From a phage: a stretch of DNA of 64,000 nt. The stretch lies in the sequence record PZ445439.1, one strand, 5' to 3'. Position numbers and translations under genes: made by a program. Below are positions 4,331 to 8,283 of this stretch, in pieces. Below the pieces are notes generated by a model. The model saw only the letters and a program-made list of their open reading frames with translations, ran no database searches and was not told the DNA's origin. How positions within the stretch are numbered: the stretch's first letter is position 1; the number at the start of each line of letters is the position of its first letter.

Positions 4331-4550
4331 AAGTTTTCCATGGTAAAGGCAGTTTAGTTTTCTTTACTGTTAGTTCAACATCAGGATTCTTTTCTCTCAA
4401 TTTAAGACATTCCTCCCAAGCTCTGATTTCACTAGTGAATACACAAAATTGCCCATTACTAGTACCGACTAAACCACTATTTACAATAACAATAGCCCAA
4501 GTTTCATGATGCCACGCCATTAAAAATCTCCCGAAGCAACTTGCCAGCAT
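4323..4550 (-). CDS. hypothetical protein, 75 aa
   Basis: track ORF, ATG start. Confidence 0.45.
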
Positions 4551-5428
4551 TCAACACCGATGCGGCGCCACATTTCAACTACTTGAGTTCGGTCATCAAT
4601 AGCTAATTTCACGTCAAAATGCGGTGCGATGTGTTTCCAGAAAATTTCTTCTTTAACTACATCATCTTTACGGGTATCGCCTTGTTCGCGTTGACACTGC
4701 ATGACTAATGGAACACCAGCAATGTCCTCAACCCATTTACGGGTCATACGATAATATTTCGTTGGGTCTTCTTCGGTTCCACTTTCACGACCTGAAACGA
4801 CTACGATTTGATAACCCATAATAGCATACATCTTAGACAGTTCAACAACCATAGGATTAATAATATCAGTATCGCATTTTTCAAGGTCATAAGGACCACG
4901 ACCATTCATTTTTGCTAATGTGCCATCAACATCAAAAATAACTGCTTTTGGTTTACCAGGAGTCCCATTATATACCGGAAGACCGAGATACTCTCGCATG
5001 CTTTTATACATTGAGCGTAAAACATCAATTGGTACTGCTTTAGTTCCGCGTTTTGAGTTACGTTTAACCAATTCAGTCCAAGGAACATCAAACACTTTAT
5101 ATTCAACTTTCCAGCCGTATTCTTTAGCAAAAGTTTCCCATGCTAGGCGACGTTCAGGATTCAGGTTAGTATCTGAAATGATTACGCCCTTAACAGAATC
5201 ACCACCGTACAGAATACTTTTAGCTGTATCAAACTGCATACCAGTTACGATACCTTCTTTCTTTTTGGTATACTTATACTCGTCGCGTTCTTCATGCGCC
5301 ATAATAGATTGGCGATAGTCATCACGATTGATATTATAAAACCCGGGATTCTTAGCAATAAATTCACGAGCCCAAGTGCTCTTACCAGAACCAGGACAGC
5401 CAATAGTCAAAATAATCTTTTTCATCAT
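4520..5428 (-). CDS. pseT: polynucleotide 5'-kinase/3'-phosphatase
   Basis: about 301 aa, P-loop GCPGSGKST at N-terminus and DxDGT phosphatase motif; matches recalled T4 Pnk. Confidence 0.9.
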
Positions 5429-5727
5429 TTAATTCCTAAGAAAACTTCAAGAATACGAATATTATGCTCACGCCGTCCTTTGTACAATTCAGCTGTTGAT
5501 TGATTCACTGATTTACTCTGAACATTGGATGAAATAAATTTTATCATGTGATTTTTAAGCTGATACATATCAAGCCCACGAGCTTTCGCTTCTTTTCGCA
5601 GGGCTTTACCCGCATCATCTAAAGCTTTAGCATGTTCAATGTCTTCGCTAATACTTGATATATTTTCACGGCATACGTCAATGTAACGGTCTGAGCATTC
5701 AATATAACGTTCTAGCAGAGTTTTCAT
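5425..5727 (-). CDS. hypothetical protein, 100 aa
   Basis: track ORF, ATG start, 4 nt overlap with pseT. Confidence 0.5.
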
Positions 5728-5954
5728 TTATTTTTCTCAACCAATGATTGAATATAATCATGCAGGTCTTTAGATGCTTTACCCCACTTATTTTGGTATT
5801 CATTTTTAAGATTAGCACGTGATTGAGCTAATAAAACATCATTAGTTGGAGGTAAAGATTCTAATCGTTGAATCTGACGTCCATAAATCATTGCTGCCAT
5901 CTCTGATTCATAAATCAATCCTTTGAGATGTTCAAATTGATGCCATGAAATCAT
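5724..5954 (-). CDS. hypothetical protein, 76 aa
   Basis: track ORF, ATG start. Confidence 0.45.
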   Translation of the reverse strand: MISWHQFEHLKGLIYESEMAAMIYGRQIQRLESLPPTNDVLLAQSRANLKNEYQNKWGKASKDLHDYIQSLVEKNK

Positions 5955-6250
5955 TTACATTTATCCTCTTTTAACTCTTGACGATAATAACATATCATAG
6001 TTTTCTGGTCATGTACATATCGTTTTACATCATTAAGCCAAATACGAAATTCCTGAGAATCTTCAAATGGCATACCGACCCAAGCTTTACCATCGATAAC
6101 TTTAACTTGCCAAGATAGTTTAGCTTCGTCATATGACTTTATTTGCACAGGCCAATTAGGATGAACTGTTTCTTTCTTTACTTCTAGAGGCTTTGTCGAA
6201 CAACCAACTAGAAGACCAATAGATAATATTACTGCTGATAGTTTAATCAT
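5951..6250 (-). CDS. pseT.2: o-spanin-like outer-membrane lipoprotein (Rz1 equivalent)
   Basis: signal peptide with LVGC lipobox; immediately downstream of i-spanin-like gene. Confidence 0.6.
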   Translation of the reverse strand: MIKLSAVILSIGLLVGCSTKPLEVKKETVHPNWPVQIKSYDEAKLSWQVKVIDGKAWVGMPFEDSQEFRIWLNDVKRYVHDQKTMICYYRQELKEDKCK

Positions 6251-6600
6251 TTAGAAAGGTCCTGGATGTCTTCTGCGAACTTGTTGAAGGAGTTGTTGAT
6301 TTGTTTTTCAACCAATCCTGGCTTATGAGCCACCACATCCGCCTTCTTTGCGTCTTTGCGCAGCTTTTCATTTTCACGCTCAATTGCAGCAATTGATTCA
6401 CGATTTTTATTATTCATTGCATCAATATAATTATATTGATTTTTTAAATCATTTAATGCTAAGGCGTTTTCATTGGCCGTTTTTGTAATTTCTACAACAG
6501 ACGTTTCTAATCTTTCAATTTTATTTTTTAAAATTAAAGAAGTTCCGCCCAATGCAATTACAATTAATAACAAGCCTGCTGTCGTATTACTTAATTGCAT
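6247..6600 (-). CDS. pseT.3: i-spanin-like protein (Rz equivalent): N-terminal TM helix plus coiled coil
   Basis: hydrophobic N-terminus then charged helical region; 4 nt overlap with o-spanin gene. Confidence 0.6.
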   Translation of the reverse strand: MQLSNTTAGLLLIVIALGGTSLILKNKIERLETSVVEITKTANENALALNDLKNQYNYIDAMNNKNRESIAAIERENEKLRKDAKKADVVAHKPGLVEKQINNSFNKFAEDIQDLSK

Positions 6601-7097
6601 AAAGTTTTAATAACCTCTATAATATCGTCTTGAGAAAGACCGTTAATTAAAATATGATGTTCCGCCGGAGATTTAGAAATTTTAAAGCATGCCGCAACAT
6701 CTTCTGCCATATCTGATGCGCTACGATTTGGATTACTAATTCCAAGACGATGTTTTCCCGTTAAAGGATTAACGATAATATAGCATTTACAGCTATTGAT
6801 ATGAACATTAGGTTGAGTCTGATTAATGAACACTTCACAATCATACTTAGCGAGTTGATTTTCTAAAAAGACTTTCATCTCCTCAACCGCATCAGGAAGC
6901 ATATCACGGGCTTGCTCAAGACGACGATTTCGATATTCTTTAATGGTCGTTTTCCGCTTGACTTGCTTAGCTAAATCTTTCTTAAGATCGGTGATATATC
7001 CAACTCGACGATTTCCTTTGAATACAGAAATCCCATCTGTAGTATCACCGTATGCTTCAACGACCATTTCAGTAGTAATAAGCTGTAAATCCATCAT
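6591..7097 (-). CDS. alc: Alc (blocks host transcription on cytosine DNA)
   Basis: about 167 aa, position between pseT region and rnlA; matches recollection of T4 Alc. Confidence 0.75.
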   Translation of the reverse strand: MMDLQLITTEMVVEAYGDTTDGISVFKGNRRVGYITDLKKDLAKQVKRKTTIKEYRNRRLEQARDMLPDAVEEMKVFLENQLAKYDCEVFINQTQPNVHINSCKCYIIVNPLTGKHRLGISNPNRSASDMAEDVAACFKISKSPAEHHILINGLSQDDIIEVIKTLCN

Positions 7098-7158
7098 AAA
7101 GTCCTCATGTTATGTCAGTAAGACTACTGTAACACAACATGAGGGACTTGTAAACAGC

Positions 7159-8283
7159 TTAGTATCCTTCTGGGATAAATTTTTTATAATTTTTCAAAAA
7201 ATTTTGTTCGATTTCACACATGACCTTTTCTTGACTATCGTACCCCTGGTATAGGCTCATAATGATACCGAACAGGTGATCCATTCCAGCACCTTTAGCA
7301 ACACCTTGTGCTTCCATTGCATAAGTCTTTCTATCCTTACCGCAATGCTTATTATGACAGTCAAGAACTAAAAACAGAGCTCGGTCTAAGTACTTCAGAT
7401 AAGTCGTTTCAAATGCTTCAATTTTTCTGTATGAATATTCATCGTCAGCGTACATTGCTTTAAGATCATCTGATGCACCGTCAATAATAGTTTTAAACAA
7501 TTTTTCTGGATTATCTAATGAACTTTTTGTGCTATGAAGAGACACGTACCAGTCAGACTTAATTTTAAAATGAGAACCATCTTTCATCACAGCAACATAG
7601 CCTTCGATGTTTTCTGCATTTTTAGCTTCTTCTACCCATTTAGGGCTATCGATTTCGTATCGTTCAACTAGATACGGACGAAGAACAGCATCTTTATAAA
7701 TATCATCATATGAAATGTATTCACCGGTTTCGTTTTCACGAATATTCAATAAAATGATTTTCATCTCTTGATAAGCAAGAACAATTCTATTAGTTGGAGC
7801 GACAAATTCAAAGTTAGCAGTAAATCCATCTTCGGCTAATTTTTTAAGTCTGTCGCGCAACTGGTGATGATTAATATTCATCAAAATTCCATTAGCCATT
7901 AAAGCCTGCTCAGATTTGATTGAACCCTTTGATTTGAACAGAATTTCATCACCGTCTAAATAAGTTGATACCAAAGACCCATCTTCTTTTGTTAGAATGT
8001 AATCAACATCATTTAAATCGATATTCATCGTGAATGGATTTTCATTCAAGTTAAAAAACTTTTCCATAGGACGAGAGGCAATTCTTACTGGTTTTTCTCC
8101 ATCCATTTCAAACATGATTCCACGACATTCCAATGCGTCTGGAAGTAACCAATCAGAATAAGATGCATAATTATATGAGAAAATTCTGTAAGTTCTTCCA
8201 GATGCACTTACATCATCTGAGTAAAAAAACTTACGCTGTGAATCCTTACATAGTTCCAGTAAATTGTTAAAAAGTTCTTGCAT
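7159..8283 (-). CDS. rnlA: RNA ligase 1 (gp63)
   Basis: 374 aa from internal Met of track ORF; matches recalled T4 Rnl1 nearly residue for residue. Confidence 0.9.

Follow-up and report, generated by a model that had tools for sequence, protein, structure and literature searches.

The DNA analyzed here is a stretch of 64,000 nt (PZ445439.1; this whole stretch is called the window below), a segment of a Tequatrovirus (T4-like) genome that bears pseT and rnlA, the genes for polynucleotide 5'-kinase/3'-phosphatase (Pnkp) and RNA ligase 1 (Rnl1). According to the window's list of open reading frames (ORFs), both belong to an unbroken minus-strand run at 4323..8770, arranged as denA-rnlA-alc-pseT.3-pseT.2-pseT.1-(extra ORF)-pseT-cd.5; the other genes and sites whose positions are given below are on the minus strand as well. 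This arrangement is almost certainly the standard T4 early-gene block, and the feature is already known.

The pseT gene is located at 4520..5425 and encodes for a 301 aa (amino acid) protein. Its ORF opens with MMKK and the second methionine is the T4 start; read from 5428, one Met codon upstream, the product would have 302 aa. Pairwise alignment with T4 PseT (T4 reference proteins were taken from NC_000866) showed 297/301 identical residues (98.7%) over the same length, the substitutions being H109Y, V188I, L203I and K218E. The kinase residues (P-loop GCPGSGKS, D35, R38, R126) and the phosphatase motif D165-V-D167-G-T (FDVDGT) are unchanged. The protein matches the full Pfam model HAD_PNKP (positions 1-143, 9.6e-59) and, over residues 6-149, AAA_33 (7.5e-23), while PHROGs places it in phrog_505, "polynucleotide kinase". 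Its top PDB match is T4 polynucleotide kinase (1LTQ, E = 4e-208), and the phosphatase domain of 5UJ0 is matched at 8.8e-96. From the 98.7% identity to a characterized enzyme we infer 5'-kinase and 3'-phosphatase / 2',3'-cyclic phosphodiesterase activity. Weak matches to the bacterial Pnkp model TIGR04075 and to Pnkp1 (PDB 4XRP, 4.7e-39) were also recorded. Bacterial Pnkp/Hen1 and other RNA repair systems (e.g., the Pnkp of Clostridium thermocellum, or Pnkp1) share with PseT of the window a P-loop kinase domain and the principle of healing followed by sealing, but their domain architecture is different and they are not orthologous, whereas the window encodes the T4-type two-domain enzyme with Rnl1 as a separate ligase.

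The second gene of the pair, rnlA (gene 63, at 7159..8283), encodes a 374 aa protein of the same length as T4 Rnl1, to which it is identical at 368/374 positions (98.4%; substitutions M9L, R142Q, E148K, V181I, T200V and I217V). Unchanged are K99 in motif I (TKEDG), E159, motif IV E227-G-Y-V (EGYVA) and K240/K242 of motif V (FKIKS), and residues 253-374, which form the C-terminal domain, are 100% identical to T4. This all-helical domain is specific to Rnl1 and has been implicated in tRNA specificity; here it matches the full Pfam model T4_Rnl1_C (positions 1-122, 2.3e-39). RNA_lig_T4_1 is also matched (3e-25), and the protein reaches 629.4 bits with the NCBIfam equivalog TIGR02308, "T4 RnlA family RNA ligase", whose cut-off is 242.25 bits. 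The top PDB match is T4 RNA ligase 1 (2C5U, E = 4e-253), and the protein falls in phrog_562, "RNA ligase and tail fiber protein attachment catalyst". Judged by the alignments, none of the substitutions in PseT or Rnl1 hits a catalytic residue, and all are conservative or fall outside the catalytic motifs; the catalytic residues are those established for T4 Pnkp and Rnl1 by mutational analysis and structures in the literature. An earlier note on this DNA had named both genes from the outset, and identities of this order, together with Pfam, PDB and TIGR02308 matches far beyond chance, bear out the two names.

The ORF list also offers a 386 aa version of rnlA with a GTG start (7159..8319), which was rejected as a listing artefact in favor of the ATG at 8283. 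The latter is the true start because it is preceded by a Shine-Dalgarno sequence (AAGAGGA) and because it gives the length of the T4 protein, so that the end at 8283 in the earlier note was correct. In the gap between denA and rnlA (8284..8335) we also observed TGCTTCC followed, after 13 nt, by TACTAT, which resembles what we take to be the consensus of the T4 MotA-box middle promoter upstream of rnlA.

The distance from pseT to rnlA is 1,730 bp and is filled by five co-directional genes unrelated to them. Next to rnlA lies alc (6591..7097, 168 aa), the inhibitor of host (cytosine-DNA) transcription, with the Pfam model ALC at 4.9e-91 and 163/166 residues identical to T4 Alc. It is followed by the two spanin genes, namely pseT.3 for the i-spanin (6247..6600, 117 aa; phrog_739 Rz-like spanin, 1.1e-37, in line with the T4 annotation) and pseT.2 for the o-spanin, an outer-membrane lipoprotein (5951..6250, 99 aa; phrog_812 Rz-like spanin, 3.5e-43). 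The sequence of PseT.2 contains the lipobox LLVGC and the C-terminal Cys87/Cys98, the T4 record annotates it as a spanin, and the spanin function of T4 PseT.3/PseT.2 has been demonstrated (PMC6139136). Then come pseT.1 (5724..5954, 76 aa), a conserved hypothetical gene of phrog_2347 (unknown function) whose product is identical to T4 PseT.1 at 74/74 aligned positions, and the extra ORF (5425..5727, 100 aa; phrog_2364). The block is bounded by denA (8336..8770, 144 aa) and cd.5 (4323..4550, 75 aa). The earlier note had called pseT and rnlA co-localized; they do share one block, but they are not adjacent.

The gene order agrees with the annotated T4 and teqhad records, and the order rnlA-alc-spanins-small ORFs-pseT was also found in one Mosigvirus and one Tegunavirus, representing the two other Tevenvirinae genera examined. 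Because it recurs in both, the proximity of pseT and rnlA is inherited; it is an ancestral Tevenvirinae synteny of the early-gene region, where the co-directional genes would form a single early transcription unit, and not an assembled or mobile anti-defense cassette. A megablast search with window positions 4000..9000 against 50,697 phage records returned 823 matching records, 496 of which cover at least 80% of the query. The closest are the Escherichia phages FriedrichMiescher (99.5%) and teqhad (99.4%), both Tequatrovirus, and the annotations beneath the matches read RNA ligase, polynucleotide kinase, inhibitor of host transcription, endonuclease II and spanins.

The 100 aa ORF is the sole departure from T4 gene content within 4520..8283. 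Alignment of the pseT.1/pseT junction showed that the stop of pseT.1 and the start of pseT are directly contiguous in T4, whereas the window has a precise cassette of ~300 bp at that point. The ORF overlaps pseT.1 upstream and pseT downstream through ATGA start/stop sequences, which would allow translational coupling with both genes. By tblastn it is present in 705 phage records at 40-100% identity, including T2, T6, RB10, Mosigvirus, Dhakavirus and Tegunavirus, and T4 looks like the outlier; the ORF has no T4 name because T4 lacks the gene. In the Tegunavirus locus its homologue is the gene directly upstream of pseT; in the Mosigvirus locus a single small ORF separates the two. A search of 5.8 billion proteins yielded only 39 clusters, and those with names are T-even-type phage proteins, a few of them labeled E. 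coli or Shigella and lying on contigs of phage size; the long contigs in the set are as large as T-even genomes. The family is well conserved except for an indel-prone stretch at about residues 21-30. AlphaFold2 with the family alignment predicts, with high confidence, a four-helix bundle (mean pLDDT 95.1, pTM 0.86); no sequence match was obtained in Pfam, NCBIfam or PDB, and a fold search was uninformative. The protein might work with Pnkp, which is a tetramer, in which case it could act as a subunit that regulates RNA end-healing or gives it specificity, or it might be an independent anti-defense or host-takeover factor lost by T4; we consider either role improbable, and offer them as speculation. 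Were it true, such a factor would have escaped 60 years of T4 genetics, T4 being without the gene. It is the one small lead at this locus, a conserved and uncharacterized neighbor of pseT missing from T4, and it leaves the verdict on the block unaffected.

The third phage component of the classical tRNA-Lys repair story, stp, is found in the same 64-kb window, at 35940..36020. Its 26 aa product, an EcoprrI inhibitor and activator of the PrrC anticodon nuclease, is 100% identical to T4 Stp and matches PF08133 (Nuclease_act, "Anticodon nuclease activator family") at 2e-21, with 75.3 bits against a cut-off of 25 bits; ndd and ac stand on either side of it, as in T4. By analogy with T4, Stp, encoded ~30 kb from the repair genes, would inhibit the host type Ic restriction enzyme EcoprrI, and this inhibition would release the latent anticodon nuclease PrrC in hosts with the optional prr locus. 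PrrC would then cut the anticodon loop of tRNA-Lys by transesterification. PrrC cleavage leaves one end with a 2',3'-cyclic phosphate and the other with a 5'-OH. The HAD/DxDxT domain of Pnkp would strip the 2',3'-cyclic or 3' phosphate, its P-loop kinase domain would phosphorylate the 5'-OH, and Rnl1 would seal the break through a Lys99-AMP intermediate, restoring tRNA-Lys and late translation. A tRNA scan found no tRNA genes in the window, and so no phage tRNA-Lys decoy here.

The earlier note had proposed the same chain from Stp and PrrC to Pnkp and Rnl1, and it agrees with the published account. As summarized by Blanga-Kanfi et al. (2006, PMC1484252), inhibition of EcoprrI by T4 Stp switches on the latent anticodon nuclease, whose transesterifying cleavage of tRNA-Lys could block late translation; this damage is normally made good by two T4 enzymes, the 3'-phosphatase/5'-polynucleotide kinase and RNA ligase 1. 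It is also known for T4 (PMC1484252) that prr+ hosts restrict pseT and rnlA mutants, that an stp mutation rescues these, and that tRNA-Lys is first cut and later religated. The mechanism is established for T4; for the phage of the window it is inferred from near-identity. Compared with the T4 PseT and Rnl1 pathway, the window has the same catalytic motifs, gene order, strand and Stp peptide, and differs by the four Pnkp and six Rnl1 substitutions and the one extra ORF between pseT.1 and pseT. Nothing in the sequence contradicts a T4-type tRNA repair.

Further counter-defense and host-takeover genes were located by tblastn with the T4 proteins. The arn gene (31741..32019) encodes a 92 aa DNA-mimic inhibitor of McrBC with 96.7% identity to T4 Arn; it matches Pfam DM_Arn (PF22134) at 3.5e-53 and PDB 3WX4, "Anti-restriction endonuclease", at 5.3e-55. 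The dmd gene (59143..59325) encodes a 60 aa antitoxin directed at the RnlA/LsoA toxins of the host; it is 100% identical to T4 Dmd, with matches to Pfam Dmd (PF17587, 1.6e-46) and to chain B, "Antitoxin Dmd", of the RnlA-Dmd complex (PDB 5HY3, 1.8e-37). Transposon sequencing is reported to show dmd to be essential on K-12 owing to RnlAB (bioRxiv 10.1101/2025.11.20.689424). The ADP-ribosyltransferase genes modA (51445..52047, 200 aa, 99% identical to T4 ModA) and modB (52044..52667, 207 aa, 95.2% identical to T4 ModB) are adjacent with a 4-nt overlap, and they return each other as reciprocal paralogue matches at 27-28% identity. No Pfam model matched ModA or ModB, and their assignment and presumed function rest on identity to the annotated T4 genes. 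All of these genes, like stp, stand 23-54 kb from the pseT-rnlA block, at their usual T4 map positions. The presence of stp, arn, dmd and modA/modB in the window had been claimed beforehand, and homology searches confirmed every named gene, with 95-100% identity to the T4 proteins. The common label of counter-defense that the genes had been given needs some qualification: Stp is an anti-restriction peptide that triggers PrrC and not a counter to it, ModA and ModB reprogram the host and are not counter-defense factors in the strict sense, and Rnl1 (gp63), given its annotated role in tail-fiber attachment, is not purely a counter-defense gene.

Some limits apply to a reading of the block as a PrrC countermeasure expressed as one unit. 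In the T4 record, rnlA carries the annotation "RNA ligase and tail fiber protein attachment catalyst". Only some hosts carry PrrC, and on many strains the phage may thus do without the repair pair. A consensus scan of 4000..9000 gave promoter- and terminator-like sites in counts no higher than in shuffled sequence, and for this reason any statement on transcription units rests on T4 knowledge and one promoter-like site. Pair and block could accordingly be explained in other ways. It is possible, if on balance rather unlikely, that roles unconnected with PrrC are the main reason why pseT and rnlA are kept, with Rnl1 retained as a tail-fiber attachment catalyst and Pnkp for general RNA or DNA end-healing or against other RNA-cleaving defenses, PrrC being a niche case. 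The tail-fiber annotation in the T4 record speaks for it, as does the filing of phrog_562 under the PHROGs class "tail"; PrrC is sporadic among bacteria (PMC1484252), yet both genes stand in a conserved block in Mosigvirus and Tegunavirus. Insertions within T4 rnlA's N-terminal catalytic domain are not tolerated on K-12, a host not described as prr+, and transposon sequencing of a T4 relative on clinical E. coli isolates showed a PseT orthologue to be one of the genes with the strongest depletion (bioRxiv 10.1101/2025.11.20.689424). The K-12 and clinical-isolate data are consistent with roles broader than PrrC alone, including that of gp63 in the tail fibers. However, pseT, rnlA, stp and prr are directly linked by genetic and biochemical evidence of long standing (references within PMC1484252), and such roles would supplement the PrrC explanation without replacing it; the sequence does not separate the two.

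That 4520..8283 might be an anti-defense island, assembled for co-transfer and with the 100 aa ORF and pseT.1 as additional counter-defense genes, we find very hard to credit. The 100 aa ORF does form a discrete cassette, present or absent among close relatives, it keeps its place at or near pseT in Tegunavirus (next to it, upstream) and Mosigvirus (with one small ORF in between), and it shares with pseT.1 the lack of a known function. Against these points, Alc and the two spanins, which account for three of the five genes in between, have established functions of an unrelated kind, synteny of the block extends to the other Tevenvirinae genera examined, the block is not mobile, and arn, stp, dmd and modA/modB are 23-54 kb away. 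Defense and anti-defense models gave neither small ORF a convincing match, the only one being a weak LmuA-tail hit (E = 0.003), and the fold search was uninformative. The inherited T4 early-gene block remains the reading that we adopt. As far as its significance is concerned, the phage of the window has the classical tRNA healing-and-sealing pair in intact form, along with Stp, Arn, Dmd and ModA/ModB, which matters little beyond annotation. It should behave like T4 towards PrrC, McrBC and RnlA/LsoA, and its T4 orthologues give a solid baseline against which the variable accessory insertions in other parts of the window can be judged.

The promoter-like site mentioned above is at 7126..7154 and consists of TTTACA, a 17-nt spacer and TACAGT with an upstream TG; it is a putative element, located in the 61-bp gap between rnlA and alc, upstream of alc. 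The same gap (7098..7158) also holds a long inverted repeat, CCTCATGTT...AACATGAGG, whose 3' arm includes the Shine-Dalgarno sequence of alc (GAGG) and which may be a translational or processing hairpin. The putative hairpin comes after the promoter-like site, and the alc Shine-Dalgarno sequence is inside it.

Outside the block, the relationship of the window to other phages changes. Tequatrovirus phages teqhad, FriedrichMiescher, T6 and RB10 reach up to 99.5% DNA identity over 4000..9000 and are alike in gene content, including the 100 aa ORF, whereas elsewhere the window is only ~95% identical to them. The 25 kb at 28001..53000 show at most ~95% identity to any phage record. Because the pseT-rnlA block reaches 99.5% and this region does not exceed ~95%, the genome is a T4-like mosaic and not a resequenced known phage, being identical to no record in the collection. 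Annotations of the best matches to 28001..53000 point to a gp38 adhesin of the T2 type and not of the T4 type. Near the block, an 85 aa ORF at 3532..3789 occupies the interval between cd.2 and cd.3, which in T4 contains only an early promoter and in teqhad a different ORF of 528 bp; it is a further variable slot for small genes.

The loci nrdB, nrdA and td follow beyond denA. The td gene (13698..14558, 286 aa) is one unbroken ORF, and the window accordingly lacks the td intron of T4 and I-TevI. The nrdA gene (11099..13354) directly follows nrdB; the T4 genes nrdB.1 and mobE are absent between them. The nrdB gene itself is split into a C-terminal part at 8774..9253 and an N-terminal part at 10366..11043. 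An Rfam scan of the whole window gave 0 matches at the gathering threshold, and accordingly no group I intron match at the nrdB insert. This insert contains a full-length HNH-type ORF of 269 aa (9413..10222, MNYRKIWIDANGPIPKDSDGRTYEIHHKDGNREN...), which looks like an intact I-TevIII in an nrdB group I intron. The I-TevIII copy of T4 is annotated as truncated and defective, whereas the ORF in the window is full-length.

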